A stretch of 64,000 nucleotides of DNA from Flavobacterium sp. Lineage in GTDB: Bacteria > Bacteroidota > Bacteroidia > Flavobacteriales > Flavobacteriaceae. Below, piece by piece: positions 5,986-64,000 of the stretch; the first letter of the stretch is position 1; every line of letters starts with the position of its first letter. The DNA is taken from positions 167,173-231,172 of the forward strand of contig NZ_JASGHW010000003.1 of NCBI RefSeq assembly GCF_047602195.1, in the 5' to 3' direction. The notes beneath the pieces are model-generated. The model searched no databases. It saw only the letters and a program-made list of their open reading frames with translations, and was not told the DNA's origin. The position numbers and the translations under genes were made by a program.

Positions 5986-6413
5986 TTTGGTATGCTGGTG
6001 CAATGTAATTTCACGCTGCGGGATCGGATTGAGGCGTCGTATTTTTCGAATTTCATCAACTGAGCTAGGTTTTTCTTACAGGATTGGCAAAATCCACTCC
6101 TTAATAATATAGTCAATTTTTTGACATGAAGCCCCAAAAAACAAACGGAATAGGTGAAATGCATCTTTCGGGGGTTAAAGTGCTAACGCCCAGTGTTTAA
6201 ACGTGTTTTACGGTTTTTGGTCGAGTATTTTTTTTTGAGATTTCAATACGGAGTTACTTTACATTTAATTAGGAGAAAGTGCCTATTTGCAACGTATAAA
6301 TGAGTAATCCTCAAAATTAAATACCTATGAATATGAAAACTACATTACTACGAACCGGCAGGTTGTGGGAAAGTTCCCAGGATCGTGAGCCCAATTCCTT
6401 TTCATTAAGGAAA

Positions 6414-13992: not shown

Positions 13993-14105
13993 AGGAGCTT
14001 ATTCCCGCTTTCCGCTGCAATCTTTTACAAAAAGAAATTGCCCTTCGCTGCGCTTCGGGCAATCTTTTTTGTAAAAGGATTTCCACTTTAATCGGGGCTA
14101 GGGCA
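13993..14105. repeat. Intergenic palindromic repeat element, family 1, copy 1
   Basis: The left end is AGGAGCTTATTCCCGCTTTCCGCTGCAATCTTTTAC. A central hairpin lies between the ends. The right end is GTAAAAGGATTTCCACTTTAATCGGGGCTAG. The termini are shared with 49941-50024. Confidence 0.75.
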
Positions 14106-24203: not shown

Positions 24204-24221
24204 AAAACAAAAATACACTTT

Positions 24222-25346
24222 TTGATGATTGACGACCAGTTGAAGGAAAAGAATAAAATCTTCGGGCTCGACCTCATGCGCGTGCTTGCGATCCTTTTGG
24301 TTTTGTGCGCGCACATTTTGTGGATTTACCAAGATTACAGCAATTTGCTCACGAAGGCGATTAATTTTTCGGGTTTCATCGGCGTCGAATTGTTTTTTGT
24401 GCTGAGCGGATTTTTGATCGGCAAATCCTTGCTCAAATTATTCCTTAATCCCGATTACAATTACAAACTCGCCTCGATTTTCCTCAGACGACGCTGGTTC
24501 CGCATCATGCCGAATTATTTGTTCGTGCTCATTTTGAACATTGCCGTGTTCAGTTACCTCGGTTATGAAGTCGTCGATGCTTGGAAATATTTCTTCTTTT
24601 TGCAGAATTTCATCCACCCGATGCTGCCGTTTTTTCCTGAATCCTGGAGCATGTCGATTAAGGAAATCCCTTATTTCCTGCTGCCGTTTGTATTTTTGGT
24701 TTTGGCACGCATCAAAAATGGCAACCGCAACCGATTGTTTTTGTGGACCATTTTAGGGTCGATTGCCGCGGTGATGTTGGCCAAGGTCGAATACAATTGG
24801 CACACCCGGAACCACAATTTGGCCGATTGGAACGTGTCGCTGCGATCGGTGGCTTTGTATAGAATCGATGCCGTGATGATTGGGATTTTGGCCAGTTGGA
24901 TCCAATACAATTTCTTGAAGTTTTGGATCAAAAGTGTCAAAATTGCTTTGGTTTTGAGTCAATTGATTTTGGCGACATTGGCGGTTTTGGTCGGTTTTAT
25001 CAAACTGCCGATCGCCGAATACCCGGTGTTTTGGAATATTTTTTTCCTACCGCTCATTTCAATCGCCTCTGCCTTGATGCTGCCATTCTTTTCCGAATGG
25101 AAATCGGGGCCCGAACGACTGCGCCAACCCGTTCAATTCCTCGGTGCGATCTCGTATTCGGTCTATTTGCTGCACTACAGTTTCGTGTTGTACCTGATGA
25201 AATATTTCATCGATTCGACTTATATGGACATCTGGCAATTGCATACCTTTACCGCGCTCTATTTGGCGTTGACCTTTGTGTTGAGTTGGAGTTTGTATGA
25301 ATTCTTCGAGAAACCACTCATGAAAATCAGGGAGGAAAAATTATGA
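24222..25346 (+). CDS. Acyltransferase family 3 (membrane O-acyltransferase)
   Basis: About 10 TM segments are present. The N-terminal motif is FGLDLMRVLAILLVLCAH. The C-terminal FFEKP motif is present. Confidence 0.85.
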   Translation: MMIDDQLKEKNKIFGLDLMRVLAILLVLCAHILWIYQDYSNLLTKAINFSGFIGVELFFVLSGFLIGKSLLKLFLNPDYNYKLASIFLRRRWFRIMPNYLFVLILNIAVFSYLGYEVVDAWKYFFFLQNFIHPMLPFFPESWSMSIKEIPYFLLPFVFLVLARIKNGNRNRLFLWTILGSIAAVMLAKVEYNWHTRNHNLADWNVSLRSVALYRIDAVMIGILASWIQYNFLKFWIKSVKIALVLSQLILATLAVLVGFIKLPIAEYPVFWNIFFLPLISIASALMLPFFSEWKSGPERLRQPVQFLGAISYSVYLLHYSFVLYLMKYFIDSTYMDIWQLHTFTALYLALTFVLSWSLYEFFEKPLMKIREEKL

Positions 25347-26443
25347 CAGACTATAGGATTTTTGGATTGGACTTGTACCGGGCAGCGGCCATTTTGTTGC
25401 TGTTGCTGGCCAATGTGCTCAATTCGTTTCAAATCGCCCATCCGGGCATGGCACAATTTGCGCCGATTCTGGGTTTGGTGTCGCTTGAAATCTTTTTTGT
25501 GTTGTGCGGTTTCCTGCTTGGGAATTCATTTTATGGTATTTTCATGGCAGAAAATTTTGCTGCGGCCGATGCAATCCGTTTTGTCAAAAGAAAACTGCTG
25601 CGCATTGTACCGCTGTATGTTTTGGTTTTGCTGGCCAATATCGGGATCGCCTACCTGATGGATTATGAAATCGGCAAGGTGTGGTCCTTTTTCTTTTTCC
25701 TGCAGAATTTTTCGCAGCCCATACCGGCCTTTTTTCCCGAATCCTGGGGATTGCCCGTGATTGTTTTTGGCGTGCTGATGTTGGTGCTTTTGATGACTTC
25801 GCTGTCGCGGATTTTTACCCAAAAGCAAAAACCGATGGTGTTTTTGATGGCAACCATCGGATTGATTCTCGTTTTTCTGTGGACCAAATGGCTGTACCAC
25901 AGTCAGCATGAAACGAATGAAATCACCAATTGGGACGTGACGCTCAAGACTGTCGCCATTTACCGTTTCGATTCGGTTTTTATCGGGACGCTTTTCAGTT
26001 GGATTTTTATGCAGCGGTCTGCGATATGGGAAAAGGCAAAATGGGCTTTGTTGTTTGTCGGTTTGGCCGGGATCGCATTTTTGGCATTCGGGATCAGTAT
26101 TTTACAGTTGCCTATTGAAACCCACCCGATGTTTTGGAACATCTTTTATTTGCCGTTGACTTCTTTGATTTTGGCCTGTTTTCTTCCGTTGCTGTCGGGT
26201 TGGCAAACGGCACCCGCTTTCTTGCAGCGTCCCGTTTCTTTGATGAGCCGGATGGCGTATGGCATTTACCTGGTTCATTTCAGCATCGTTTTGCTGCTGG
26301 CCGAATACTTGCTCAAAGTCGATTTCGGTAACCCGAGTGCAGTCATTTTAATGTCGGCGGTTTATGTTTGCTGCTCGATTTTATTCGGTTGGCTGCTGCA
26401 TCATTTCGTCGAAAAACGGCTCCTCGCACAAGCGCAACGCTAA
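25343..26443 (+). CDS. Acyltransferase family 3, tandem paralog
   Basis: FGLDLYRAAAILLLLLAN and the same FFLQNF...FFPESW block as the upstream gene are present. The two genes overlap by ATGA. Confidence 0.85.
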   Translation: MTDYRIFGLDLYRAAAILLLLLANVLNSFQIAHPGMAQFAPILGLVSLEIFFVLCGFLLGNSFYGIFMAENFAAADAIRFVKRKLLRIVPLYVLVLLANIGIAYLMDYEIGKVWSFFFFLQNFSQPIPAFFPESWGLPVIVFGVLMLVLLMTSLSRIFTQKQKPMVFLMATIGLILVFLWTKWLYHSQHETNEITNWDVTLKTVAIYRFDSVFIGTLFSWIFMQRSAIWEKAKWALLFVGLAGIAFLAFGISILQLPIETHPMFWNIFYLPLTSLILACFLPLLSGWQTAPAFLQRPVSLMSRMAYGIYLVHFSIVLLLAEYLLKVDFGNPSAVILMSAVYVCCSILFGWLLHHFVEKRLLAQAQR

Positions 26444-31691: not shown

Positions 31692-32879
31692 CTATTTTTT
31701 GATGTAATTGAAAGGAATGTAGCCCTGCCATTGCCAAGGCGTTTCATAATCGCCGATGATTTTTTCGAGCAATTCCTTGAAAATCTGTTCGGCATTTGTG
31801 CTGTTGGTCATGATGATGATTGCGGTATTCTTGTCTGGGAAGTTGACATTGTAATGGCGCCAGGCACCGTCATGGCTTTCTATGAAAAACGCCCGTCCGA
31901 ATTTGCTCTTGAAAAATCCCCAACCCAATGCATACGACAACTGGATGTCTTTGTTGTCTTCGGTTGTTTCGGGATGGTCCGATGGAAATTGGTATTTCGA
32001 ATTGATGGCAATCTGCGGCGCAATCATCTCGTTGCGCACTTTGGGGTGAAGCCCTTGGTGAAGCAAAATCTTTTGGATGAAGCGCGTGTAATCGGCAACC
32101 GTTGTCACCATGGAATTGGCGGCGTTGGGCGTCGAGGTTTTCTTTTTGGCCATCGGTTTGCCTTTTTCATCATAACCCATGGCGTAATTTTCATCAAAAT
32201 CAGAATGCCAGACAAAACCCGAATGGAACATTTCCAATGGCTTGAATACTTTTTCAATGGCCAATTCCTCCAGATTTTTTCCCGTAATCTTTTCGACGGT
32301 CAACTGCAACAACTTAAAACCTTCGTTCGAATAGACGTACTTTGTCTCGGGTTTGTAATACAATTTGAGCGCGGCGGTTTGGTCTTCGGCACCGGTTTGC
32401 GGATTGGTGAAGCGCGAATAAGGCAAACCTGAGGTATGGCTCAAACACATGCGGGGCGTGATCAATTTCCAACTTTCATCTTCGGCCAAGGGAGACCAAT
32501 TGGGGTATTGTGAAATATCGCCCAGATACTCGAAAAGCGGTTTGTCGAGATCGAGTATTTTTTCCTCCACGAGTTTCATCGAAAGATAGGCGAAAACCGC
32601 CTTGCTCAAAGAACCGGCTTCGAATGCCGTTTCGGGATCGAGCAATTGGTCTTTTTCCTTGTCCTTGAACCCGTACGGTTTGATGTAAGCCTTGTTGCCG
32701 TTGATGACCGAAATACACAAACCATCGACCTTACCATAAACAATCAATTTCTCGGCGATGCCGTCAATTTGTTTGGGCGTGATGGTGCTGCCGTCCAATT
32801 TCTTGAGATCGGCGGTAGGTCTTTGCGCCAGTATCGGCCCTGCGAGAAGGCAGGCAAAAAAAAGCGCGGTTTTTTTCAT
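31692..32879 (-). CDS. Serine hydrolase, beta-lactamase/transpeptidase-like (class C-type fold)
   Basis: The SxxK motif (GSLSKAV) and the YxN motif (YVYSNEG) are present. The signal peptide is MKKTALFFACLLAGPILAQ from the ATG at 32879. The longer ORF-track start is rejected because it overlaps the neighbouring gene. Confidence 0.8.
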   Translation of the reverse strand: MKKTALFFACLLAGPILAQRPTADLKKLDGSTITPKQIDGIAEKLIVYGKVDGLCISVINGNKAYIKPYGFKDKEKDQLLDPETAFEAGSLSKAVFAYLSMKLVEEKILDLDKPLFEYLGDISQYPNWSPLAEDESWKLITPRMCLSHTSGLPYSRFTNPQTGAEDQTAALKLYYKPETKYVYSNEGFKLLQLTVEKITGKNLEELAIEKVFKPLEMFHSGFVWHSDFDENYAMGYDEKGKPMAKKKTSTPNAANSMVTTVADYTRFIQKILLHQGLHPKVRNEMIAPQIAINSKYQFPSDHPETTEDNKDIQLSYALGWGFFKSKFGRAFFIESHDGAWRHYNVNFPDKNTAIIIMTNSTNAEQIFKELLEKIIGDYETPWQWQGYIPFNYIKK

Positions 32880-32889
32880 AACAGTAAAT

Positions 32890-33231
32890 TTATCGGGCAA
32901 TACGACGCACTTCGACCGAGTTGTGCTGGCCTTGTAAAACCGGGCTTCCCTTGGCAAATTCAATGGCTTCCTCGATCGATTCGGCGCGCACGATGATGTA
33001 GCCGCCGATCGTCTCGTGCAGGTTGCCAAAAGCCTTCTCGGAAACGCGTTTGTCGCCGCCATGCACGACGCGTGCCTCGTCAAACAGCAGTCCTTTGCCG
33101 TCGCTGAATTTGTTCTGTGCAGCGATGTCGTTGATCCAGTCCATGGTTTGCTGCATCCATTGCTGCATTTGTTCCTGCGAGATGGATTTGCTCGCGTCTT
33201 CGTGCCTAAAAATTAAAATGTATTCGTTCAT
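32890..33231 (-). CDS. YciI-family (DGPF-like) protein
   Basis: The protein is 113 aa. The GGYIIVRAESIEEAIEFAKGSP pattern is typical of YciI-like proteins. Confidence 0.65.
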   Translation of the reverse strand: MNEYILIFRHEDASKSISQEQMQQWMQQTMDWINDIAAQNKFSDGKGLLFDEARVVHGGDKRVSEKAFGNLHETIGGYIIVRAESIEEAIEFAKGSPVLQGQHNSVEVRRIAR

Positions 33232-40977: not shown

Positions 40978-42021
40978 TTGAAAGCTAAAAGAATTATCGG
41001 AATCGCTTCCGTTGTTATTGTCACCGGCCTTATTGTTTATGGCTATATCATGTACCGCAACATCTTCGCGGACAACACCAAATTTACTGATAGTATAGCT
41101 TACGTAACTATTCCGAGCGGCTCCGATTATGAAGCCGTCAAGAAAATCATGGCCGGTTATGTCGACAATATGGAGCGTTTCGAAAGTGTGGCGGAAAAGA
41201 AATCCTATCCGCAACGCGACAACAAAGCTGGCCGGTTTTTGCTCAAGAAAGGCATGAACAGCAATGATATTGTCAATGCCTTGCGTGTGAATGTGCCGGT
41301 CGATTTGACATTCAACAACCAGGAAAGATTGGAAGATTTCTGTGGCAGGATTTCGCACCAGATCGAAGCCGACAGCCTGAGCCTGCTCACCGCTTTCAAA
41401 GATCCTGAATTTCTCAAGGAAAACGGATTTACCGAAGACAACGTACTGGCGATGTGCATCCCGAATTCGTACGAATTTTTCTGGGACACCAATGCCAACA
41501 AATTCCGTGACCGCATGGCCAAGGAATTTCGCAAGTTCTGGACAGAGGAACGCGTCAAGAAAGCCGAAGCGCAAAATTTGACTCCAATTCAGGCAACCAT
41601 CCTGGCTTCGATTGTACACAAGGAAACCGTCAAGAAAGACGAGCGTCCGCGCGTGGCCGGTGTTTATTTGAACCGTTTGGGCAAAGGCATGAAACTCGAG
41701 GCCGACCCGACGGTGATTTATGCGGTCAAGAAAAATTCGGGCGACTGGAACCAGGTCATCAAACGCGTGTTGAACAAGGATTTGGCGACCGATTCGCCTT
41801 ACAATACCTATATGTACGCGACCTTGCCGCCGGGCCCGATTGCGATGCCTGATATCACTGCAATCGACGCCGTACTCAATCCGGAAAAGCACAATTACAT
41901 TTATTTTTGCGCGAGTGTGACCAATTTCGGCTACCATGAATTTGCCGTAACGCCGGCGCAGCATGAAGTCAACCGACAAAAATATGTGGCCTGGATCAGC
42001 AGCCAGGGCATTACCAGATAA
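40978..42021 (+). CDS. mltG: Endolytic murein transglycosylase MltG (YceG-like)
   Basis: An N-terminal TM anchor is present. The block ILASIVHKET...RPRVAGVYLNRL...LEADPTVIY...YNTY is typical of YceG/MltG. The start is probably TTG. Confidence 0.85.
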   Translation: MKAKRIIGIASVVIVTGLIVYGYIMYRNIFADNTKFTDSIAYVTIPSGSDYEAVKKIMAGYVDNMERFESVAEKKSYPQRDNKAGRFLLKKGMNSNDIVNALRVNVPVDLTFNNQERLEDFCGRISHQIEADSLSLLTAFKDPEFLKENGFTEDNVLAMCIPNSYEFFWDTNANKFRDRMAKEFRKFWTEERVKKAEAQNLTPIQATILASIVHKETVKKDERPRVAGVYLNRLGKGMKLEADPTVIYAVKKNSGDWNQVIKRVLNKDLATDSPYNTYMYATLPPGPIAMPDITAIDAVLNPEKHNYIYFCASVTNFGYHEFAVTPAQHEVNRQKYVAWISSQGITR

Positions 42022-42025
42022 TTAT

Positions 42026-42950
42026 TTGAGACCAAACAGACCCATATTCGTTTTGATCCTGCTTTTCGCAATGGCCACTTCCTTTGCACAAAGCGGGCTA
42101 AACCGTTTCCTAACCCCGGCTGATACCTTAAGCAAACCCCGTGCTTTGGGCGTGACCATTTCTATGGGTGTTTTGGCCGGTGGCTCGATTGCTTTGCTCA
42201 ACCAGTCTTGGTATTCCGATTACGACAAAACCGATTTCCATACCGTCAACGACAATGCCGAGTGGCTGCAGGTCGATAAGGCCGGACATGTTTTCTCGGC
42301 TTACCACCTCGGAAGACTGGGCAAGGAAGCCTTGCAATGGTCGGGCGAAACGCGGACCAAACAATTGGTTTACGGCCCCGGACTGGGTTTGCTCTATTTG
42401 AGCGCGGTCGAAATCATGGACGGCTATTCTTCGAACTGGGGATTTTCGTATGGTGATATGGCGGCCAATGTTGGCGGGACGGCTTTGTTTGTCGGCCAGG
42501 AATTGCTGTGGAAAGAGCAGCGCATCACGCCAAAATTTTCATTCCATACGACCGAATATGCTTCGGCGCGCCCGAACGTGCTCGGAGAAAACTTGCCCGA
42601 ACAAATCCTCAAGGACTACAATGGACAGACTTATTGGCTGTCTGCCAATGTGCATTCGTTTCTCAAAAACACCAGTGTCAAAGTACCCAAATGGCTCAAT
42701 GTCGCGATCGGTTATGGAGGCGAAGGGATGATCACCGGCGAGGATGTTTTGGTCAATACCGTTTTTCTCGAAAGAAAAGGAAAGAACGCGCCAATTTTAC
42801 TTCAGTTTTGACGCCGACCTGACCAAAATCGAAACCAAATCGCACGTGTTGAAGACCCTTTTTTCGGTTTTCAATACCGTCAAAATCCCCGCGCCGACTA
42901 TTGAATTGCGCGGTGACGGCAAGGCAAAATTCCGCTACCTTTATTTTTAG
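42026..42950 (+). pseudogene. DUF2279-family outer-membrane or lipoprotein-like gene interrupted by one extra A at 42767-42776 (CTCGAAAGAA)
   Basis: ORF 41963-42811 ends ...NTVFLERKGKNAPILLQF*. The +1 frame continues EKERTRQFYFSFDADLTKIETKSHVLKTLFSVFNTVKIPAPTIELRGDGKAKFRYLYF* to 42950. Removing one A joins the two pieces as ...VFLEEKERTRQFYF... A probable TTG start at 42026 gives the signal peptide MRPNRPIFVLILLFAMATSFAQ. Confidence 0.7.
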
Positions 42951-44216: not shown

Positions 44217-44325
44217 TTGGGCGTGCCCCTGCGGGTCGCGCTTTTCGCTTTATCTTTTACGGCTTCGTCCCGTAGAGTCGGGACTGCGTCCGCAAAAGGA
44301 TACCGCTGCAATCGCTCACGCGCCC
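44217..44325. repeat. Intergenic palindromic repeat element, family 1-related, copy 3
   Basis: The left end is GGGCGTG...GCGCTTTTCGCTTTATCTTTTAC. The central hairpin is GTCCCG/CGGGAC. The right end is GCAAAAGGATACCGCTGCAATCGCTCACGCGCCC. Confidence 0.6.
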
Positions 44326-44330
44326 TCGAA

Positions 44331-45068
44331 TCAAAACTTGTGGATGATAAAAATCGCCGGCCTGTTGTGCAAATCCACCTTGATTTTTTTCCAATCCTGC
44401 ACGCGCAACGTTTTGATGAATTCGGTCGGCAAGGTCAGGTCGGCAGCGACACACAAATGCGTGTTGGGTTGCAAGGTTTGCAGTAAATCTTCCAATAGTT
44501 TGTTGTTGCGGTACGGCGTTTCTATAAACAACTGCGACTGGTTTTTATTTTGGGAAAGTGTTTCAAAATTTTTCAAGGCCGACTTCTTTTCGCCTTTGTC
44601 GATCGGCAAATAACCATTGAATGCAAAACTCTGCCCGTTCATTCCTGAACCCATTACCGCCAATAGGATAGAGGATGGCCCGACTAGCGGCACGACCTGG
44701 ATCCCTTTTTCATGCGCGAGCTTGACAATCGCCGCACCCGGATCGGCCACGCCAGGACAACCCGCTTCGCTCATCAGTCCCACGTTTTTGCCTTCGAGGC
44801 AAGGTTGGATCATCGCGTTGTACTCGGAAGTTTCAGTGTGTTTGTTTAAGGCAGAAAGCCGTAATGTTGCTTGTACTTTGGCCGGTTCGATGGCCTTGAT
44901 GAAACGGCGTGCGGTTTTTTCGTTCTCCACGATATAATCGTCGATAAAACCAATCGTGCGTTGGATGGTTTGCGGCAAGACTTCCGCGGCGTTTTGCTTG
45001 GCCAGTTCGCTGTCGTTCGGGTCGCAGAGCGGAACCGGAATCAAGTAGAGTTTGCCTAAAGCTTTCAT
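44331..45068 (-). CDS. SAM-dependent methyltransferase of the tetrapyrrole-methylase (RsmI-like) superfamily
   Basis: LYLIPVPL, GLMSEAGCPGVADPG and ETPYRN blocks are present. The gene is the third of a dnaA-PTP-methylase string, as in Flavobacterium. Confidence 0.75.
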   Translation of the reverse strand: MKALGKLYLIPVPLCDPNDSELAKQNAAEVLPQTIQRTIGFIDDYIVENEKTARRFIKAIEPAKVQATLRLSALNKHTETSEYNAMIQPCLEGKNVGLMSEAGCPGVADPGAAIVKLAHEKGIQVVPLVGPSSILLAVMGSGMNGQSFAFNGYLPIDKGEKKSALKNFETLSQNKNQSQLFIETPYRNNKLLEDLLQTLQPNTHLCVAADLTLPTEFIKTLRVQDWKKIKVDLHNRPAIFIIHKF

Positions 45069-45534: not shown

Positions 45535-46962
45535 TTAAAGCGAGAGTTTCTTGTTGATGTCTTCAACGAATTTCTTGAACTGCTTGTCGGTGGCGACGAG
45601 GTTATCGACGGTCTTGCAAGCGTGCAATACCGTAGCGTGGTCGCGGTCCCCGATTTGCGAACCGATGTTGGCCAGTGAAGCCTTCGTGAATTTCTTCGCA
45701 AAGAACATCGCCAATTGTCTGGCCTGCACCACGTGGCGTTTTCTGGTTTTCGATTGCAGGGTTTCGAGGTCCAACTGGAAATAATCGGATACGATTTTCT
45801 GGATGTAATCGATCGAGATTTCGCGTTTGACATTCTTGACGAATTTCTCGACCACGTGTTTGGCGAGCTCGATCGTCACTTCTTTTTTGTTGAAAGAAGA
45901 CTGCGCAATCAAGGAGATAATCGCGCCCTCGAGCTCACGAACATTCGATTTGATGTTGCGCGCGACGTATTCGATGATTTCCTCGGGCATGTCCACACCG
46001 TCGCGGTACAAGATGTTCTTGAGGATCGAGATACGCGTTTCGTAATCGGGTTGGTGCAATTCGGCAGACAATCCCCATTTGAAACGCGAGAGCAAACGTT
46101 GCTCGATGTCCTGCATGTCCACCGGCGCCTTGTCTGAAGTCAGGATGACCTGTTTGCCGTTTTGGTGCAGGTAATTGAAGATGTGGAAAAACACATCCTG
46201 TGTTCCTGATTTTCCGGAAAGGAATTGCACGTCATCGATAATCAACACATCGATCAATTGATAGAAGTGGATGAAATCGTTGCGGTTGTTTTTCTTGACC
46301 GAATCAATATACTGTTGCGTGAAAATCTCGGCTGAAATGTACAGCACGGTTTTCTCGGGATATTTGTCCTTGATTTCGACCCCAATCGCGTGCGCCAAAT
46401 GTGTCTTTCCGAGACCGACGCCTCCGAAAATGAGCAATGGGTTAAACGAGGTTCCGCCCGGTTTGTTGGCTACGGCCATACCGGCAGAGCGCGCGAGTCG
46501 GTTCGAATCGCCTTCGAGGAAATTGTCGAAACTGTAATTCGCGTTGAGCTGGGATTCGATTTTGAGGTTCCGGATGCCGGGAATCACAAACGGATTCTTG
46601 AGTTCCGGACTTAGGTTTTTGAATGGAGCATCGACTTCCTGCGACTTGACAGGCGAGCGGTGCGCACTGGGCAACTGTTCGGTGAACGGTTGTTTGTTGC
46701 CGTAAGTGTTTTCCATCTTGATTTTATAGAGTAACTTTGCGTTTTTTCCGAGTTCTTTCGTAAGCGCCACTTTCAACAATTTGACGTAATGTTCTTCCAG
46801 CCATTCATAGAAAAATTTACTAGGAACTTGGATGTACAAAGCATTATCGGTGAGCTCAACAGACTTAATCGGTTCAAACCAGGTTTTGTAAGCCTGATCC
46901 TGGATATTGTCCTTTATGAATAAGAGACAATTTTCCCATACTGATTGCGCAGTTTTGCTCAT
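45535..46962 (-). CDS. dnaA: Chromosomal replication initiator protein DnaA
   Basis: Walker A is GGVGLGKTHL and Walker B is LIIDDVQFL. The C-terminal DNA-binding domain reads RKRHVVQARQLAMFF...GDRDHATVLHA. The protein is 475 aa from the ATG at 46962. Confidence 0.96.
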   Translation of the reverse strand: MSKTAQSVWENCLLFIKDNIQDQAYKTWFEPIKSVELTDNALYIQVPSKFFYEWLEEHYVKLLKVALTKELGKNAKLLYKIKMENTYGNKQPFTEQLPSAHRSPVKSQEVDAPFKNLSPELKNPFVIPGIRNLKIESQLNANYSFDNFLEGDSNRLARSAGMAVANKPGGTSFNPLLIFGGVGLGKTHLAHAIGVEIKDKYPEKTVLYISAEIFTQQYIDSVKKNNRNDFIHFYQLIDVLIIDDVQFLSGKSGTQDVFFHIFNYLHQNGKQVILTSDKAPVDMQDIEQRLLSRFKWGLSAELHQPDYETRISILKNILYRDGVDMPEEIIEYVARNIKSNVRELEGAIISLIAQSSFNKKEVTIELAKHVVEKFVKNVKREISIDYIQKIVSDYFQLDLETLQSKTRKRHVVQARQLAMFFAKKFTKASLANIGSQIGDRDHATVLHACKTVDNLVATDKQFKKFVEDINKKLSL

Positions 46963-47163
46963 AAATTGTAATAAATTAGTGTTTTTATTAAAGGTTCTCT
47001 TACAAGAAAAACAGTGGGTTTTTGCTTGTTTTTCGGGGTAACAAATATGTGAACAAAAATCGTTAAAAAAAAATAAAAATCGAGTTGATTTTTTAAAATT
47101 ATTATTGTAAGACGACATTTCTTACCCTATTGCAATGTACTAAATTTCTAATTAAAAAACCAT

Positions 47164-49940: not shown

Positions 49941-50024
49941 AGGAGCTTTTCCGGCTTTCCACTGCAATCTTTTTAAAACTCCTTTCGTCGTTTCAAAAAG
50001 GATTTCCGTTTCAATCCGGGCTAG
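49941..50024. repeat. Intergenic palindromic repeat element, family 1, copy 2
   Basis: The element runs AGGAGCTTTTCCGGCTTTCCACTGCAATCTTTTT...AAAAAGGATTTCCGTTTCAATCCGGGCTAG. Confidence 0.75.
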
Positions 50025-50043
50025 TGCATCTGTTCAATATTCA

Positions 50044-52737: not shown

Positions 52738-55414
52738 ATGAAAGGTTTCTTTTTTCAAGCGGCGTTGCTGTTTTTGGTTTTCGCTTCCGCGGCTATTGTG
52801 CAAGGACAAAATGGCGCAATCATCCACCAAACCAGCGATTACACTATTTTTTCGGATGGCGTCAAGCAAGGGGCATTCTCGGCCAAAGCAGTTTCGTCCA
52901 CTGAATTGGTGTCGAATTACCAAAGCCCCAAAAACGAATCGGTTTCTTCGCTGGTCGAGTTCAAATTCAGCATCAACCAGAAAGACAATGAAATGAAACC
53001 GGGCCTCAACCATTGGTTCAACCTTTCCGGAAAAACAGAAACGCCGCTGATTCAATTCGGCCAGCCGTTAACAATGACCGATAAAAATGAAACTTCGATT
53101 CCATCGGATACGCCGCTTAAAGTGCGGTTAGACCTGCGTCCCGTTTTGGCCGAAATTAAATCCAAAGGCTATTTCACGACCTTCAACGGCGACCGGATTT
53201 TCAAGGCCGATTTCAAACACGTCTACATTGCCGGGGCCACCGCACCGTTGACTTGGGATTTCGACAATTTGCACCAGAAGCCCGAACTCGAAATGAAAGA
53301 CCCGGATGGCGATGGCATTTATGAAACGAAATTGGTATTCAATTCCAAAAAGGACCAAAAGACCACCGACGGGAACTGGAAAATGACCCGAAACACCACG
53401 GCTTTTCCACAGTACCAATCAGACCACGTTTTGGCCGATGCGATCTACAACCTTTCGCTCGAAAGAAATGATCAACGCCGTAGAACCCGACGGCACTTTC
53501 CGTACCGGGAAAGAATGGGCGGGCGTGTGGACACGCGACATCAGTTACAGCATCATCTTGTCGATGGCTTACTTGCAACCGCAGGTGGCGATGAACAGTT
53601 TGATGCGCAAGGTCAACGAAAACAAGCGAATCATCCAGGATACGGGAACCGGCGGCGCTTATCCGTGTTCAACCGACCGTGCGATTTGGGCCACGGCAGC
53701 CTGGGAAGTTTACAAGGCGACGGGTGACCAAAAGTGGCTCGAAAGTACTTATGAAATTATCAAAAATTCGGTCGACGACGATTACTGGATGGCATTTGAT
53801 GATGAAACCAACCTCATGCGCGGCGAGTCGTCTTTCCTAGATTGGCGCGAGCAAACCTATCCCAAATGGATGCAGCCGGCCGATATCTTCGAATCGCAAA
53901 ACCTGGGGACCAATGCCGTGCATTACCAAGCCAATATGGTTTTGTCTAAAATGGCGCGTGCCTTGGGACACGAAGCCATCGCAGCCAAACACGAGCGCAC
54001 CGCCGAATCGATCAAGAAAGGCATCAACGACCATTTGTGGATTACCGACAAAGGCTATTACGGCCAATATTTGTACGGCAGGAATTACAAAATGCTGTCG
54101 CCGCGTGCCGAGGCATTGGGCGAGGCACTGTGTATTCTATTCGGTATAGCTGATGCAGAAAAAGCGGCTTCGATTGTTGCCCAATCACCACAGTTGGCGT
54201 ATGGGATTCCGTGTATCTATCCGCAGATTCCGGGCCTGCCGCCGTACCACAACGACGCAGTCTGGCCGTTCGTGCAATCCTATTGGGCACTGGCTTCGGC
54301 CAAGGCGGGCAATGAGGCTTCGGCGATGGAATCGATTGCGGCGATTTACAGACCGGCGGCTTTGTTTTTGACCAACAAGGAAAATTTTGTCGCGGGCAAT
54401 GGCGATTTTGCGGGTACGGTCATCAATTCGAGCAATATGTTGTGGAGCCTTTCCGGGAATATCGCACTCGTGCACAAATTGCTTTTCGGGATCGAGTTGC
54501 AGGCGGACCGTTTGGTTTTCCATCCGTTTGTACCCAAACCATTGGCGGGCCAACGCAGACTAAACAATTTCAAATACCGCAACGCCATTTTAGACATCAG
54601 CCTGTCGGGTTACGGAAACCAGATCAAGAAGTTCACGGTCGATGGCAAAAAGGCCCAAACCGAAATCTTGGCCAGCTTAACCGGGAAGCACAAGATAGAC
54701 ATCGTTTTGAACAATGATTTGAAACCTTCTTCGATCAACAAAACGGAGAATTATTTTTCGCTCCCGACGCCTTTGGTCACTTTGGAAAACAATAAAATTT
54801 CCTGGGCCAGTATTCCCAATGCGGTCGCGTATGCGGTCATCCAAAATGGAAAAATCGTTGCCCGAATAACGGCCAATGCATACGACATTGCCATGGGAAA
54901 TTACGCCGAATACCAAGTCGTTGCCATCGATAAAAGCAACATGGCTTCTTTCGCGAGCGAACCCATTGCGGTTTTCAAACCCGAATCGGCCCACATTTAC
55001 GAAGCCGAAGATTTTGCTCCCAAAGCGAATTATGATTACAAAGGTTTTTCAGGAACTGGGTTTGTCGAAACCGCCAAATCGTCCAAAGGCCAATCCGAAC
55101 CAATGCGTTTTACGATTGACGTCGCCCAAAGCGGGACTTATGCGATCGATTTCCGTTACGCCAACGGAAACGGCCCGACGAACACCGAGAATAAATGTGC
55201 CATCCGCGATTTGAGTTTGGGCAATTCAAATTTGGGAACATTTGTTTTTCCACAACGCGGGGTGCAGGAGTGGAGCAATTGGGGTTTTTCGAACAGTGTG
55301 AAAGTTCATTTGCCCGAAGGGAAGCAAGCGCTCCAGCTCGATTGGCAGGAAAATATGAACGGTGCCATCAATCAGGCGATGATCGATTATTTACGCATCA
55401 TCAAATTGGATTGA
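52738..55414 (+). pseudogene. Secreted glycoside-hydrolase-like protein ((alpha/alpha)6-type catalytic region plus a C-terminal CBM6/35-like module), interrupted by one extra A at 53458-53467 (CTCGAAAGAA)
   Basis: ORF 52738-53727 has a signal peptide (MKGFFFQAALLFLVFASAAIVQGQ) and loses sense after ...AIYNLSLE. ORF 53438-55414 carries the continuation EMINAVEPDGTFRTGKEWAGVWTRDISYS... The C-terminus (YEAEDF...GFSGTGFVE...MIDYLRII) is CBM-like. Removal of one A gives an 891-aa protein. Confidence 0.75.
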
Positions 55415-55458: not shown

Positions 55459-55534
55459 ATTTCAGATTTTAGATTTCAGATTTCAGATTGAAACCAATCG
55501 AAAATCTGAAATCTGAAATCATAAATCTAAAATT
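55459..55534. repeat. Heptamer-based (TTTCAGA)n palindromic element immediately upstream of hisS
   Basis: A perfect 18-bp stem GATTTCAGATTTCAGATT (55472-55489) / AATCTGAAATCTGAAATC (55503-55520) is present. It shares TTTCAGATTTTAGA and AAATCTAAAAT with the 18566-18635 copy. Confidence 0.8.
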
Positions 55535-55538: not shown

Positions 55539-56910
55539 ATGGCCCAGAAACCCAGTACCGCAAGAGGCACGAGAGACTTTTCGCCCACAGAAGTTGCAAA
55601 AAGGCAATTCATTATCGACATCATGAAAGGTAATTTCGAGAAATTCGGATTTCTTCCCATCGAAACGCCGTCATTTGAAAATTCGGAAACCTTGATGGGA
55701 AAATATGGAGAAGAAGGCGACCGGTTGATTTTTAAGATATTGAACAGCGGTGATTTTTTGGACAAGGCAGATGAAAAGCACCTGGTCAATCGCGACAGTT
55801 TAAAATTGGCCGCGCAGATTTCAGAAAAGGCGTTGCGTTACGACCTGACCGTTCCGTTTGCCCGGTATGTGGTACAGCATCAAAATGAGATCGAATTTCC
55901 GTTCAAACGCTACCAGATCCAACCGGTTTGGCGAGCCGACCGTCCCGCGAAAGGCCGATTCAGGGAATTCTACCAATGCGATGCCGATGCCATCGGTTCC
56001 CAAAGCCTGTGGCAGGAAGTCGAATTGGTGCAATTGTACGATTCAACCTTTAGCCAGCTCGGACTCAAAGGCACAACGATCAAGATCAACAACCGCAAGA
56101 TATTATCGGGAATCGCTGAAGTCATCGGCGCTTCGGATAAACTGATCGATTTTACCGTGGCACTCGACAAGCTCGACAAAATCGGCGAAGACGGTGTCAA
56201 GAAAGAAATGATCGAAAAAGGCATTTCGGCCGAAGCGATTGAAAAAGTACAGCCATTGTTCAACTTCACCGGAACGATTTCGGAAAAAATAGAAAAATTG
56301 TCGCTATTGCTTTCAGCTTCGGAAGAAGGCAAAAAAGGCATCAGGGAACTGCGTTTCATTTGTGACCATGTGCAGACCTTGGGACTCAAGGATTCGAATC
56401 TCGACCTTGATGTGACCTTGGCGCGCGGGCTCAACTATTACACCGGTGCGATTTTCGAAGTCGCGGCCCCGGCAACAGTGTCCATGGGCTCGATTGGCGG
56501 CGGCGGACGATACGACGACCTGACCGGAATTTTCGGACGCCCGAATTTGAGCGGCGTCGGGATTTCGTTTGGCCTGGACCGGATTTACCTCGTGCTCGAA
56601 AGAACTCAGCTTGTTTCCCGAAACGGTCACTTCTAGCTCGAAAGCGCTATTTGTGAACTATGGCGAGAAAGAAGCCTTGTATGCGATGAAAGCCATCGGC
56701 CAATTGCGAGACAAAGGCATCAAGGTCGAACTGTATCCGGACAACGTCAAGCTCGGCAAACAGTTCATGCACGCCGAGAAACGCGGCATCCGCTATGCGG
56801 TCATCGCCGGCGAAACAGAGATGGCAGCGGCACAATTTGGACTGAAGGATTTGGTTTCCGGCGAGCAGACTTCAGTGAATTTAGCAGAATTAATAGACAG
56901 ATTAGCATAG
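55539..56910 (+). pseudogene. hisS: Histidine--tRNA ligase, with the reading frame interrupted by one extra A at 56595-56604 (CTCGAAAGAA). It is likely functional if the A is an artefact or is bypassed.
   Basis: N-terminal ARGTRDF, motif 2 REFYQCDAD and motif 3 GGGGRYD are present. The frame breaks after [14 protein letters not shown]. The +1 frame continues [29 protein letters not shown]..., which is the anticodon-binding domain. The corrected length is 456 aa. Confidence 0.85.
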
Positions 56911-56985: not shown

Positions 56986-59583
56986 TTACTTGATGATAAT
57001 CTTTTTGGAGATATCGCCATGGGTGGTCAGCGCTTTCACCACATAGGTTCCGGTACTGATAGGAGGTACAAGGATTTGCATCTTGGATTGGTCTTTTGCA
57101 TGAACGTCCCACAGCGCCAACGATTGGCCGAGCATGTCGAAGATCTGTACCGATTGTACATTGACCTCGGGTTTGCCGTTTTCGATCGTAAGCATGTTGT
57201 CATTGGTCGCAAAAGTCAATGCAATGTCGTGGGTCGGTGCGGTAAAAGTCCCGGTGCCGAGCGGTGCGCCCGTAAAGCGAAGCGAGAAACGTTCGGTATA
57301 GGTGCCTTGCGGCAGGTAAATCTGGAACGGTGCCCAACGCAGGTTGTGGTATTGGTTGGTGACGTTGTCGTAAATATAGATTGGTTGGTCTTCGTCGAAG
57401 TTTTGTACATCGTCCAGGATAAATTCGACATTGCCCACGCCCAGGGTTTTCACACCGAGTCTGTAAATGTTGTTCGCGTTGAAATAACCTTCTCCTTCGA
57501 TGATCAGTTTGTAGTTGAGGTTCATCAGGTACAAGTCGTTGGGCTGCGTATCGATGTTGTGTGCGTCGTAACCCATGTCCATGCCGCTGGTCGCAAATTC
57601 GTTCATGAAACCCAACAAGACTTGTCGGTGGAATGAACCGGCGTTGAATCCCAATCGGATGCGCGCAAAATTGTCGTCTTCTACCGGGTCATTGCTGTTG
57701 TCGTATTGTTCGGAGATCGGGTCGGTGCCATTCTTGAACAGCACGTTCGAATGCGTGGCATCTTCTTTCATGAAAGCCCTTTGGTCGTTGTTGAACGTCA
57801 GGCTTCCGCCGACGGTGTTGGCATTGACAAAGAATGCCTGTCCAACGGGAATGAAACGGCCCGGAATTTTTTTACTCGCCGCGGTCATACTCGTTCCGAC
57901 GGGCGATACCGGCGCAGTTCCGCCAACGAGGTTCCGCACGGCATAACCGCCTTGATAATCGGCCAGGTTGTGCGAATTGTTCGTGCTGAAATGTTCCCAG
58001 AAATACAAACTTCCATTGATCACCGAATTGTTGGCCATGATGAACGCATTGGCATCGAGTGCCGATGGATACGGATTGCCCGATAAATTCAGGTTCCCAG
58101 CCGCGATGGGCGAGGTAATCGTTCCGTTATTGGGTTTGCCGACGAAAGCGAAATTCTGTTTCGGAGTCGATGCGCCGCATCCCTTGAGGGTAAACCCTTG
58201 GGCTGGGAGCAGGGTTCCGTTGGGACCTACCGCTGTCCAGTTGGCATAAATCGGGGTCGTATTCTGGAATTTGAAGATCCAGAAACCGCTCAGCGTAATC
58301 GGTGAAGTCGGTGCCCCGTTGAGGTCGTTGGTCCAGTTGATGTTGAGCAGGTTGTCGGGATTGGTGGCGTCGCGCAAAATGCTGTTGACGCTGTAACTGT
58401 TGTTGTTCGAACTGGTGTTGGTATTGCCCACAGGCGAGCACCAATAATTGTAATTGTACAGGTTGGACTGGCCCTGTTGGTCCCTTTCGATATAGCCGGC
58501 ACTTGTAGGGTCAAGTTCGCTATCGATCGTCTGGACCAACTGGGATTTGCCCTTGAGGTCGAGTTTTCCGTCGAGTTTGAGGTACCACGTATTCTCGAGT
58601 TTGTTGTCGTTGGTGAGGTTCACCGATACCTCCGGGTCGATGATCATCCCGAGGTTGATCTGGTTCGAAGGAATATTGATGTTGTGGTGCACCTGGATGA
58701 TCGACCAGTTGTAGGTCGATAGGTCGCGGCCGTTGACAAAGTTATTCTGTCCCACGACTGCATCGATGCGGCCTGCTGCCGAAGTTTCGAATGGCATCGG
58801 CGCCATTTGTGTTTCGAAGACCGGCGCATTGTACAATTGGGCCTGGGCCGTTGATGCGCGGTTGAACAATTTGTCGTCGGCCGAAACATCCATGCGGAAG
58901 TAGGCCAGTAGCGAACTCCAGTTGGTTCCTTCGATATCACGTGGTACGACTTCCCCACGGATCCGGGTGCCGTTGGGCTTGATTTCCTGGTAGACCATTT
59001 TCTGGATCATGGCATCGGTGAGCGCGGTATTGAAGACACGCACTTCGTCCATCGCACCTTTAAAATAATCGGTATTGGACAATGGATTTTTGCCCATCGT
59101 AAATTTGGCCGCGCTCGCAGATAAGGCGCCCGTTAAGACATTGGGCGCAGCGGCCGCTTCCTGTCGCCCGTTGACGTAGAGCTTGAGTTTCTCGGTTGCT
59201 GATTGGTTGTAGACCACACAGATGTGGTACCAACGGTCTGCCGATAAGGCTTGGTCAAAAGCAATGCTATGGTTCTTTGCGGTGGCCACCAATGTTTTGC
59301 CGTTTGCATCGGCTACGATCTTGAGGTTGAAATTGTCCTGGCCCATGATGAAACTGGTGGCGGTCAGGTCGGCGTTGATCCGAATCCAACCCATGAGTGT
59401 GGCTTGGCTGAGTCCGCCGAGCATTTGTGGCACATCGGCATATTGGTTCAGGCCATTCAAAACCAAACTTTGTTTTGCGTTGGGATTTTCAATCTCCAGC
59501 GGCGGCTTGTTTGCGGCAGAAACAGAAACTGTAATCCACAGCATGGCAATAGTGAAAAGTAGATTTTGGGTAAAGGTCTTCAT
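56986..59583 (-). CDS. LamG-like jellyroll domain surface protein with a T9SS C-terminal sorting domain
   Basis: The signal peptide is MKTFTQNLLFTIAMLWITVSVSA. The LamG-type block is LVLNGLNQYADVP...WYHICVVYN...LYVNG...DEVRVFNTAL. The C-terminus is VQIFDMLGQ...TGTYVVKALTTHGDISKKIIIK. The protein is collinear with the C-terminal ~840 aa of the next gene. Confidence 0.82.
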   Translation of the reverse strand: MKTFTQNLLFTIAMLWITVSVSAANKPPLEIENPNAKQSLVLNGLNQYADVPQMLGGLSQATLMGWIRINADLTATSFIMGQDNFNLKIVADANGKTLVATAKNHSIAFDQALSADRWYHICVVYNQSATEKLKLYVNGRQEAAAAPNVLTGALSASAAKFTMGKNPLSNTDYFKGAMDEVRVFNTALTDAMIQKMVYQEIKPNGTRIRGEVVPRDIEGTNWSSLLAYFRMDVSADDKLFNRASTAQAQLYNAPVFETQMAPMPFETSAAGRIDAVVGQNNFVNGRDLSTYNWSIIQVHHNINIPSNQINLGMIIDPEVSVNLTNDNKLENTWYLKLDGKLDLKGKSQLVQTIDSELDPTSAGYIERDQQGQSNLYNYNYWCSPVGNTNTSSNNNSYSVNSILRDATNPDNLLNINWTNDLNGAPTSPITLSGFWIFKFQNTTPIYANWTAVGPNGTLLPAQGFTLKGCGASTPKQNFAFVGKPNNGTITSPIAAGNLNLSGNPYPSALDANAFIMANNSVINGSLYFWEHFSTNNSHNLADYQGGYAVRNLVGGTAPVSPVGTSMTAASKKIPGRFIPVGQAFFVNANTVGGSLTFNNDQRAFMKEDATHSNVLFKNGTDPISEQYDNSNDPVEDDNFARIRLGFNAGSFHRQVLLGFMNEFATSGMDMGYDAHNIDTQPNDLYLMNLNYKLIIEGEGYFNANNIYRLGVKTLGVGNVEFILDDVQNFDEDQPIYIYDNVTNQYHNLRWAPFQIYLPQGTYTERFSLRFTGAPLGTGTFTAPTHDIALTFATNDNMLTIENGKPEVNVQSVQIFDMLGQSLALWDVHAKDQSKMQILVPPISTGTYVVKALTTHGDISKKIIIK

Positions 59584-59795: not shown

Positions 59796-62700
59796 TTACT
59801 TGATAATGATCTTTCTAGATAAATCGCCTTTCGAGGTGTGCACTTTCACTATGTACGTTCCGGTGCTGATTGTTTGGACCGGTAACTGGATTTTCTTTTG
59901 GTTGACATCGGTGACGTCCCAAGTCGTTACGACCTGGCCGAGCATGTTGAACAACATTACTTCTTCAACTTCTGCATCGGTGCCGTTGAGTACCGTAATC
60001 ATGCGGTCATCGCTGGTGAAGAAAGCATTGATGTTGGCGTTGGCAACGAAATCATCGGTATGCAATGAAGTGCCGTCGGTGAATCGCAACGAGAAACGGT
60101 TGTCGATGGTGCCGGCCGGAAGCTCGATGCTGAACTTCTCTTCGCCACGGATCGAATGGTACAGATCGGTTACATTGTCATAGATGTACACTTCCTGCGA
60201 TTCTTCGAAACTTTCGGTATTGTCGAGCATGAACTTGATGGTTCCCGCTGCGGCCACTTTGACCCCGATCGGGTAGATGTTGTTCACGTTGAAGAAACCG
60301 TCACCTTGGATGTTCAATTTGGTTTCACCGTTGATGAAATACATATCGCTCGGTTGGTTGTCGATATGCGGCGCATCATAGCCCACATCGATTCCGCTGG
60401 TCGCGTGTTCGTCCATAAAACCGAGCAGCAATTGTCTGTGGAAATTCTCCGGCGAAGTGTACCCGAGACGGATTCTGGCAAAAGTATCCGCTTCGAAATA
60501 ATCCTCCTCGTTGTTGAATTCGGCCACTGAAGCCCTGGTCAAAGGCGCACCGCTGTTGGTATTGGCCTCACGGAACATAAAGTTCGAGCTCGCGTTGTCT
60601 TCCTTGACGAACAAACGTTGGCTGTTGTTGAAGGTGATGGTTCCACCAGTCGCGCTACCGTTGACGAAGAATCCTTGTCCAACCGGGATGAATCTTCCCG
60701 GAATTCTCGTACTGGTTCCTGCACCGCTGATGCCGGCCGGAGCTACCGGAGGTGTTCCACCCGTCAAGTTTCTGACGGCATAACCTCCTTGGTAATTCAC
60801 CAAAACGTGCGAGTTGTTGGTGCTGTAATGCTCCCAGAAATACAGGGCGCCGGTTGTCGAAGCCGCGTTGGCCAGGATGAACGCATCCGAATCGAGTGCC
60901 GAAGCATATGGGTTTCCGCTCAGGTTCAGGTTGTTGGCTGCAATCGGGCTGGTGATGGTCGCGTTGTGCGGCTTGCCAGAGAACGTGAAGTTTTGGGTAG
61001 CCGTAGCCGCGCCGCTTCCTTTCATGGTGTAGCCTTGTCCGGCGAGCAAAGTGCCGTTGGCACCGACCGATGTCCAGTTCGCATAGACCGGCGAGGTGTT
61101 CTGGAACTTGAAGATCCAGTAGTTCGCGATCGAGATAGGCGAGGTAGCCGAACCGTTGTAGCCTGTGACAAAGTTGATGTTCTGTACGTTTGATGGCGTA
61201 GTTCCGTCTTTCATGACCCCGTTTACCGTATAATTGTTGTTGTTGGTAGTCGCACTGATTGCTCCAACAGGGGCACACCAATAATTGTAATTGTAGATGT
61301 TCGATTGTCCTTGTTGGTCTCTTTCGAGTGAACCGGCACTGGTCGGGTCGAGGTCGCTCTGCGCAGTCTGCACCAATTGCGATTTGCCCACGAGGTCAAT
61401 TTTTCCGTCGAGTTTCAAGTACCAGTCGTTCTGGATCTTGATGTCGTTGGTTGCCGAAATGGTAGCGGTCGGGTTGACGAACATGCCCAAATCGACATTG
61501 TTGGCCGTCTCGGTGATGTTGTGTCTCACTTCTACAATCGACCAGTCCTGGTCCATGATGTCGAGTCCGCGGATTTCACGTGTCGGGCTGTTGACCGCAA
61601 CTGCGAAGTTTCCTGGTCTTTCGGTTTGGAATGGCATCGGGGCCTGCTGTACCTGGATGATTTTGTTGTTGTAGATTCTCATACCAGTGGCCACGTCAAT
61701 CGAGGCGGTAGTCAAGTCGTCGATGATGTCGTCTTTGTACGCATCCATTCTGTAATAGCGCAATACGTTGGCCCATGGAAGCGATCCCACATCTTTCGGG
61801 ATGATGGCACCCCTGACCTGTGAGCTGTTGTTTTGCATCTCTTGGTAAACGATTCTCTGGAACTGCGCATCGGTCAGGTTCTTGTTGAAAATACGTACTT
61901 CGTCGATTTTGCCTTTGAAATAATTGTTATTGGCCGTTGGGTTTTTACCGATGGTCAACAGCGAGGCATCGGCTTGTACGCTTCCTGATTCAGAATGTGT
62001 AGACACGTTGACCCCGTTGAGGTACAATTTGAGCAAACCGCCACCCAATGTAGCACCCACATGGTACCATTGGCCCGTATTCAAGGCAACACTGCTGTAG
62101 GTTATGCTGCTTCCGTTCATGGTCACTTGCAAGTTTCTGTTGCTGTCGATCTTGAGTTGGAATTTGTCCTGGCCAATTACCACACCCTCGCCATTAAAGG
62201 CGCTGTTGAGGTCTACCCAGGCCATTATTGTCAAGGTAGACAATCCACCCATGACACCAGTGCCGCTGCCGTAATCGTTTCTTCCGTCGAATTCGAGGAA
62301 CAATTTTCTGTTCAAATCCCTTGGCGAGCCAATCGCCGAAGTATTGGTGTCGAAAGTATCGGTAATACCGTCTTTGTCCATATCCGATGAACCGTCAATC
62401 ATACCGTCGTTGTTGGCGTCAAGGCTCAAATACAAACTGTTGAAGATGTCGAAATAACCATCGCCATCCGAGTCAAGCTGCAAATAATCCGGGGTGTTGT
62501 CGTTGTTGGTGTCCTGCGCAAATGCCCTAGGATTGGTTCCAAAACCGGTATTGTTGTCATACAGGTCGAGGATTCCGTCACGGTCGGTATCCACGAGGTC
62601 GCCTTTTCCGTCGCCGTTGATGTCGCCATCACCGTTGTAGATGCCCGCCTCGTCCACATCAAACCATGAATCGTTGTCAGAATCGAGGTCGAGGTAATCC

Positions 62701-64000
62701 GGCACACCGTCATAGTCTGTATCCGGAATCGAATAAGATCCACCGCTGATGTAGCTGTCGATGATGTCGTTCAATCCGTTGCCGTTGGCATCGCTCCAGG
62801 TCAATGGGCTGCTCAAATCCATTTTCGACAAATAGTTGCTGAAATGTTTGAAGCCTGCTTCTTCCACATCTGGAATACCGTCGTTGTCGTCATCGAGGTC
62901 GAAGATGTTGGCAATGCCGTCACCGTCCGTATCGATGTAATTCTGTACGATCTTGATGTCGTCGATGGCCAAGTCATTACCACCACCACCGGTCGAGTTG
63001 TTCTTGAATCGGATGATGAATGAAGTCACGTTGCCTAAGTTGACCGAAGTCGAGAATGGCAACCAGTTGGTCGTCGCACAAGAGTTGTCGTTCGGATCCA
63101 TCGTACATCTTCCGATGTAACCGGTGTTGAACGAAGACAACAAGTTGTTGTTCAAATCGACGAACTCCACCGTGATGTTCGGACGGATACTGCCGCTGTA
63201 ATTGCTTTGTCTCATGATGTTGAGTACAAAGAAGCTGTACGAGATCGGTACGTTCGGGATCACCCCGTCGATCCTGGTTTCGTAGAAAGTACCCGCAGCG
63301 AAACTCGCGTTGAATACGGCCATCCTTCCGTTGACGTCGCTTGGTGTGTGGTCCAAACCATCGTACCAGGCCAAGTCGCCGTGGATGTTTTCAGGATCGG
63401 ATGCAACCGGGCCCGTAATTTTGTAGTTCACACAGTATTCACCGTCTTCCAGCGTTACCGAAGCATCGCAGGCAGAACCGTATCCGTCTTCATAGCAATA
63501 GCTACAAGTCGCACCCGGCGTATTGACGTTGATTTGGCCCTTGGTGGTTCCCGCACCGAAAGTTTCGTTGAGGAACACATACTCCACCAGACCGGTCAAT
63601 GGGTAGGCCAGACCGTCGGTTTGCTCCTGGATATCGATGATGCCGTCGTTGTCGTCGTCGATGTCTTTGTTGTCGGTAATGCCGTCACCGTCGGTATCCT
63701 TATAGGTTTGTACACCGGTTCCAGAAAGGGCGAAGTTGTATGGATTTTCGTCGCTGTCGTTGTTCACGATAGAGAACATCGCGTTTTTGACCCCGATGGT
63801 AGTCGGCGTAAAGGCAATCTTGAAGCGCGAGTTTCCACCGGCCGCAATGGTAGAGGCCGGAGCAGAAATGACACTGAAGTTGGAAGCGTTCACGCCACTA
63901 AAGCTGGCTGCCCCGATTGCCAAGGCACCGGTTCCCGTGTTTTCGATGATGAGGTTTACGTATACGCTACCGCCGTCCATCGAAACCTCGCCGAAATTGG
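59796..64000 (-). CDS. Giant surface protein, N-terminus outside the window. Contains thrombospondin type-3-like Ca-binding repeats, a LamG-like domain and a T9SS C-terminal sorting domain.
   Basis: The frame stays open to the window edge (…NFGEVSMDGG…). Many DTDGDGI.D..D.DDDNDGI motifs are present. The LamG block is LFLEFDGRNDY...WYHVGATL...LYLNG...DEVRIFNKNL. The C-terminus is VMLFNMLGQ...TGTYIVKVHTSKGDLSRKIIIK. Confidence 0.82.
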   Translation of the reverse strand, partial: NFGEVSMDGGSVYVNLIIENTGTGALAIGAASFSGVNASNFSVISAPASTIAAGGNSRFKIAFTPTTIGVKNAMFSIVNNDSDENPYNFALSGTGVQTYKDTDGDGITDNKDIDDDNDGIIDIQEQTDGLAYPLTGLVEYVFLNETFGAGTTKGQINVNTPGATCSYCYEDGYGSACDASVTLEDGEYCVNYKITGPVASDPENIHGDLAWYDGLDHTPSDVNGRMAVFNASFAAGTFYETRIDGVIPNVPISYSFFVLNIMRQSNYSGSIRPNITVEFVDLNNNLLSSFNTGYIGRCTMDPNDNSCATTNWLPFSTSVNLGNVTSFIIRFKNNSTGGGGNDLAIDDIKIVQNYIDTDGDGIANIFDLDDDNDGIPDVEEAGFKHFSNYLSKMDLSSPLTWSDANGNGLNDIIDSYISGGSYSIPDTDYDGVPDYLDLDSDNDSWFDVDEAGIYNGDGDINGDGKGDLVDTDRDGILDLYDNNTGFGTNPRAFAQDTNNDNTPDYLQLDSDGDGYFDIFNSLYLSLDANNDGMIDGSSDMDKDGITDTFDTNTSAIGSPRDLNRKLFLEFDGRNDYGSGTGVMGGLSTLTIMAWVDLNSAFNGEGVVIGQDKFQLKIDSNRNLQVTMNGSSITYSSVALNTGQWYHVGATLGGGLLKLYLNGVNVSTHSESGSVQADASLLTIGKNPTANNNYFKGKIDEVRIFNKNLTDAQFQRIVYQEMQNNSSQVRGAIIPKDVGSLPWANVLRYYRMDAYKDDIIDDLTTASIDVATGMRIYNNKIIQVQQAPMPFQTERPGNFAVAVNSPTREIRGLDIMDQDWSIVEVRHNITETANNVDLGMFVNPTATISATNDIKIQNDWYLKLDGKIDLVGKSQLVQTAQSDLDPTSAGSLERDQQGQSNIYNYNYWCAPVGAISATTNNNNYTVNGVMKDGTTPSNVQNINFVTGYNGSATSPISIANYWIFKFQNTSPVYANWTSVGANGTLLAGQGYTMKGSGAATATQNFTFSGKPHNATITSPIAANNLNLSGNPYASALDSDAFILANAASTTGALYFWEHYSTNNSHVLVNYQGGYAVRNLTGGTPPVAPAGISGAGTSTRIPGRFIPVGQGFFVNGSATGGTITFNNSQRLFVKEDNASSNFMFREANTNSGAPLTRASVAEFNNEEDYFEADTFARIRLGYTSPENFHRQLLLGFMDEHATSGIDVGYDAPHIDNQPSDMYFINGETKLNIQGDGFFNVNNIYPIGVKVAAAGTIKFMLDNTESFEESQEVYIYDNVTDLYHSIRGEEKFSIELPAGTIDNRFSLRFTDGTSLHTDDFVANANINAFFTSDDRMITVLNGTDAEVEEVMLFNMLGQVVTTWDVTDVNQKKIQLPVQTISTGTYIVKVHTSKGDLSRKIIIK

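Follow-up and report, generated by a model that had tools for sequence, protein, structure and literature searches.

A recurrent 10-base context behind three +1 frameshifts, including one in hisS, in a Flavobacterium assembly: a probable systematic sequence error

In a deposited Flavobacterium sequence the essential gene hisS is out of frame between its catalytic core and its anticodon-binding domain, and the question is whether the base responsible belongs to the organism or to the record. We refer to the whole stretch of DNA that was analyzed, 64 kb in length, as the window. The gene opens on the plus strand with an ATG at 55539, and the zero frame holds class II motifs 1-3 (…REFYQCDAD…GGGGRYD…, with GISFGLDR also in the same frame) through the GAA at 56598-56600. 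This catalytic part (55539..56600) matches the Pfam family tRNA-synt_His (PF13393) over profile positions 1-308 of 308 with an E value of 2e-36, and is thus the full-length catalytic core of a class IIa histidyl-tRNA synthetase (HisRS). The frame breaks on the plus strand at CTC GAA A GAA, 56595-56604. Past the break the zero frame reads AGA ACT CAG CTT GTT TCC CGA AAC GGT CAC TTC TAG, which is 11 sense codons followed by a TAG stop at 56634-56636, while the +1 frame from the GAA at 56602 encodes the HisRS anticodon-binding domain and stops at 56908-56910. This second piece (56602..56910, plus strand) matches HGTP_anticodon (PF03129, E 2e-16) and corresponds by tblastn to residues 354-456 of the repaired protein at 99% identity. 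As deposited, the C-terminal HGTP domain of a class IIa HisRS is therefore not fused in frame to the core, but lies in the +1 frame.

An earlier note, made from the letters of this DNA, had placed motifs 1-3 in one frame and the anticodon-binding domain in the +1 frame, had put the zero-frame stop 11 codons past the site at 56636, and had seen no second hisS in the window. The reading of the open reading frames and Pfam agree on the first point, the TAG at 56634-56636 bears out the second, and tblastn with the repaired protein found these two pieces and no second hisS in the 64-kb window. No further lesion was found in either piece. The downstream open reading frame has a single start, a TTG at 56569, which falls within the upstream reading frame and is not credible as an independent start.

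Removal of one A from the AAA at 56599-56601 converts CTC GAA A GAA CTC into CTC GAA GAA CTC and yields a HisRS of 456 amino acids. The best 120 homologues are Flavobacterium HisRS proteins at 79-86% identity, nearly all of 456-458 amino acids, and both domains are present in all of them. The hisS junction was readable in 119/120 of these proteins, and in all 119 it is a gap-free [LIVM]-E-E-[LM]. At the DNA level, xxx-GAR-GAR is in frame at 71/71 related genome loci at which the hisS site could be located, from a set of 80 loci, and three of those 71 carry exactly the 9-mer CTCGAAGAA at this position. Searching the JGI metagenome collection with a degenerate pattern for the hisS junction returned 26 contigs with CTCGAAGAA and 0 with the 10-mer CTCGAAAGAA of the deposited sequence. 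A second assembly of the same species was not found in the collections searched, the best HisRS relative being 86% identical, and the HisRS product of the source record itself is absent from the protein collection. One of the related loci, L055, lies on a contig (CALPPA020000246.1) titled "MAG: Klebsiella pneumoniae" that was probably binned into this MAG by mistake; its Flavobacterium-type hisS has 79% identity to the query.

The 10-mer is not confined to hisS. The window contains exactly three copies of CTCGAAAGAA (42767, 53458 and 56595). All are plus-strand copies in which CTC is in frame, and each is a +1 frameshift, so that three unrelated genes are broken within 14 kb. In all three, deletion of one A gives a gap-free Leu-Glu-Glu junction as in the homologues. 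The earlier note had described the hisS site correctly, but had missed that an identical 10-mer, in the same codon phase, frameshifts two other genes of the window.

The second copy (53458..53467, plus strand) lies in a gene for an MGH1-like/trehalase-family glycoside hydrolase, which is split into 52738-53463 and 53465-55414 with TCG CTC GAA A GAA ATG between the two parts. The repaired protein is 891 amino acids long, and its homologues are single proteins, mostly of 875-920 amino acids, with near-complete coverage of the query. Their junction is a gap-free x-E-E-M in 40/40 aligned homologues and L-E-E-M in 28/40. The deposited product, P0287 (53684..55414), is a C-terminal fragment only, of 576 amino acids with an ATT start. 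Between the stop of the hydrolase gene at 55414 and the hisS ATG at 55539 sits an inverted repeat (55459-55533) with 31-nt arms that are 90% complementary, 13 nt between them, and 7-nt ATTTCAG units; it could serve as a terminator or as a hairpin with a regulatory role.

The third copy (42767..42776, plus strand) lies in a gene for a DUF2279 lipoprotein, split into about 42026/42053-42772 and 42774-42950. Once repaired, the protein is 307 amino acids long, and homologues of 290-318 amino acids run uninterrupted through …TVFLEEKERTRQFYFSFD…. The deposited product, P0149, is truncated at 252 amino acids (42053..42811). For this gene the alignment with the nearest relative at the DNA level, a Logan contig at 83% nucleotide identity, places a 1-nt gap precisely at this position. 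A syntenic relative, L096, has the same order of glycoside hydrolase gene and hisS at 74-78% nucleotide identity, and there both genes are intact, with CTCGAGGAA in the hydrolase gene and CTCGAAGAA in hisS at the corresponding positions. The order of the large open reading frames downstream of hisS is likewise common to the window and L096.

Both P0149 and P0287 match the window exactly, and by exact-sequence look-up its intact proteins belong to one NCBI record (MFT3793917-25 / WP_4150352xx). Because the record's own products P0149 and P0287 are truncated accordingly, the frameshifts belong to the deposited sequence. Their presence in the record is what could be said for taking them as true mutations, in which hisS and the DUF2279 and glycoside hydrolase genes would be genuine pseudogenes or split genes, with HisRS supplied by a second hisS elsewhere or by two cooperating fragments. 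We consider this very unlikely. Three independent insertions would not choose one 10-mer in one phase, each hisS piece still matches its domain over the full length, is about 80-86% identical to intact orthologues and is otherwise undamaged, the downstream piece has only the TTG inside the upstream frame to start from, and the neighboring genes are intact. The genuine pseudogene that the earlier note had entertained as one outcome is likewise unlikely for the same reasons, namely the threefold recurrence of the 10-mer and hisS halves that are sound apart from it.

The surplus base lies within a homopolymer, the AAA at 56599-56601, and one could therefore imagine that RNA polymerase drops an A in the run and so restores the frame. 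Productive transcriptional slippage, however, needs roughly 7-9 or more identical bases, as in dnaX, IS elements and endosymbiont poly(A) tracts, and the run here is of three, far below that length. Many other A3 runs in coding frames of the window give no sign of a shift, and slippage would leave the requirement for the full 10-mer unexplained. We give this explanation next to no credence.

The distribution of the uninterrupted 9-mer offers a further view of the same pattern. A motif search of the window gave one copy of unshifted CTCGAAGAA, on the minus strand at 25302-25310, where it runs antisense to acyltransferase genes of the plus strand. These are tandem, full-length Acyl_transf_3 paralogues at 24177-25346 and 25301-26443, and the 9-mer is located at their junction. 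The ratio of 10-mer to 9-mer is accordingly 3:1 in the window, versus 0:13 in 554 kb of DNA from 80 related Flavobacterium genomes, among which the source genome is not included. Genes of the window encode six other L-E-E tripeptides, none of which is written CTC-GAA-GAA; since these remaining tripeptides use other codons, every in-frame CTC-GAA-GAA of the window has the extra A. The uncorrupted k-mer is thus depleted, colinearity with the homologues returns once the extra A is taken out, and recurrence at the same context in unrelated loci extends to 3/3 copies, all of which are features of a systematic context-specific error. No frameshift in the window was linked to sequences that differ from the motif at one position (TTCGAAAGAA, present four times, ATCGAAAGAA, CTCGAAAGAG and others).

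These counts also hold what can be said for recoding, in which the DNA is real and ribosomes shift +1, or read a quadruplet GAAA or AGAA, at CUC-GAA-A-GAA to give full-length products. All 10-mer copies are in the sense orientation with CTC in frame and a one-base skip gives the conserved L-E-E, the lone unshifted 9-mer is antisense, and hisS is essential with no second copy in the window. If true, many genes, the essential hisS among them, would yield their products from frameshifted templates through an efficient shift or a quadruplet-reading tRNA, as a bacterial counterpart of the genome-wide frameshifting of Euplotes. The site itself, however, has little to commend it for such a role. Re-pairing of tRNA-Glu from GAA to AAA leaves a first-position mismatch, and the A-site codon is neither a stop nor hungry, AGA accounting for 102/625 Arg codons in the window and so not being rare. 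Nine in-frame GAA-AGA dicodons, including CTC GAA AGA G, TTT GAA AGA A and GAA GAA AGA A, are decoded with no shift. Beyond the 10-mer the three sites have no flanking sequence in common, upstream or downstream, and the 70 nt downstream of each fold no better than shuffles (z = +0.84, -0.91 and -1.15), so that there is neither a common cis stimulator sequence nor a common structure. Rfam returned no recoding element in the window, and the window has no tRNA genes, so there is no expanded anticodon loop to inspect there. Nor is the site conserved: no orthologue has the shift, whether among the HisRS proteins (119/120), the 71 genome loci or the metagenome contigs (26 versus 0), and the nearest relatives are intact at the sites (HisRS 86% identical, DUF2279 protein 92% identical). 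Recoding would furthermore demand independent A insertions at every in-frame CTC-GAA-GAA of one lineage. We therefore regard it as highly improbable, on a level with true mutation.

Apart from the three sites, the window was scanned for frameshifts with a six-frame coding-potential scan based on codon usage and with Pfam on adjacent open reading frames, and none beyond the three was found in the 64 kb. The scan gave two candidates, one on the minus strand at 32816-32908 and one on the plus strand at 42015-42113. Both were rejected, being ordinary neighboring genes that have starts and signal peptides of their own, and overlapping same-strand pairs of open reading frames were rejected as split genes given that Pfam shows distinct, complete genes. 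The genes neighboring hisS are intact. The assembly is clean apart from one k-mer. A census of homopolymer lengths was uninformative, as the window is 48% G+C versus about 35% in most relatives.

The window contains several other features. There are three intergenic matches to the Rfam Flavo-1 RNA (RF01705), all on the minus strand, at 13997-14103, 44230-44335 and 49944-50026, scoring 65.9, 45.2 and 70.8 bits, respectively, above the gathering score. A dnaA gene at 45535-47118 (minus strand) has DnaA_N, Bac_DnaA and Bac_DnaA_C all present, and its presence indicates that the window adjoins a probable replication origin region. Four very large open reading frames, of 865 to more than 1,900 amino acids, are located at 1-5931, 6321-11783, 56986-59583 (minus strand) and 59796-63998 (minus strand), and two of the four run off the ends of the window.

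Because one 9-mer is converted into a 10-mer in unrelated genes, with exact repair in each and the rest of the sequence clean, we conclude that the extra A is very probably not biology but a systematic error of sequencing or consensus in the public assembly, tied to its sequence context. A true CTCGAAGAA on the plus strand would have been written by the consensus as CTCGAAAGAA. The organism most likely has an ordinary intact class IIa HisRS gene of 456 codons' worth of protein, its DUF2279 and glycoside hydrolase genes are likewise most likely intact, and there is almost certainly no biology to explain beyond a normal hisS. The earlier note had held that the extra A was either not real or bypassed during expression. 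The first of these is strongly favored, since the same 10-base context breaks three genes, each repair is exact and relatives show the 9-mer only, whereas nothing supports a bypass.

We infer the error from this pattern. Most likely, basecalling or polishing of long reads (nanopore-type) would have failed on one k-mer, and a base in or near that k-mer could, more speculatively, be methylated. The platform was probably a long-read one, the sole hint being the length of the contig (661,552 bp). Recurrent nanopore basecalling errors that are bound to a motif and not removable by read consensus have been documented, and often stem from base modifications outside the basecaller's training (PMC10687267), and indels in long-read assemblies inflate CDS counts through frameshifts (PMC11649196). 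The unaltered CTCGAAGAA at 25302-25310 counts against this explanation, as it makes the error either incompletely penetrant or specific to one contig strand. The altered sites (3/3) all lie on the plus strand, in the sense orientation and in phase; the lone unaltered 9-mer is on the minus strand. Within the window, gene-sense specificity, which would speak for biology, is inseparable from contig-strand specificity, which would speak for a basecaller or polisher, and from incomplete penetrance.

A systematic error of this kind has consequences for how such records are read. In an assembly that is clean elsewhere, an insertion error tied to a single k-mer can disrupt about one gene in every 20 kb and so produce false pseudogenes of essential genes, and the truncated "proteins" P0149 and P0287 are already in NCBI and UniRef. 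Screens for recoding or pseudogenization must first test whether their candidate sites have a common sequence context. Should a modified base be behind the error, CTCGAAGAA may mark an uncharacterized methylation motif in this Flavobacterium.

Set beside known systems, the repaired gene resembles the class IIa HisRS of Flavobacterium in length (456 amino acids), in its full tRNA-synt_His core and HGTP_anticodon domain, in its 79-86% identity and in a gene neighborhood that is the same as in L096, and differs in being split over two frames as deposited. The +1 frameshift of prfB, encoding RF2, takes place at CUU UGA C, where the P-site codon re-pairs (CUU to UUU), the A site is occupied by an in-frame stop and a Shine-Dalgarno-like stimulator lies upstream, and it is widely conserved in orthologues. 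The hisS site is like it in that a one-base +1 skip is needed for an essential translation-related gene and in that the zero frame ends soon after, but re-pairing, A-site stop, Shine-Dalgarno-like stimulator and conservation in orthologues are all missing. In Euplotes, genome-wide +1 frameshifting at AAA-UAA/UAG relies on a stop codon in the A site, is lineage-wide, and has been confirmed in transcripts and proteins. Were the DNA real, the likeness would be one short shift motif common to many unrelated genes; the motif here, however, lacks a stop and is found in a single record and in none of the relatives. There is also a parallel with the systematic or modification-mediated nanopore errors of Chiou et al. 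(2023, Commun Biol, PMC10687267), which recur at one motif genome-wide. Like the insertions described here, they persist through read consensus and polishing and have no counterpart in close relatives, and the true sequence can be recovered from conserved homologues. The published errors are mostly substitutions at methylated motifs of 5 nt (GCAGC, GCTGG), whereas the change here adds 1 nt within a 9-nt context, making it at best a variant of that modification-linked phenomenon.
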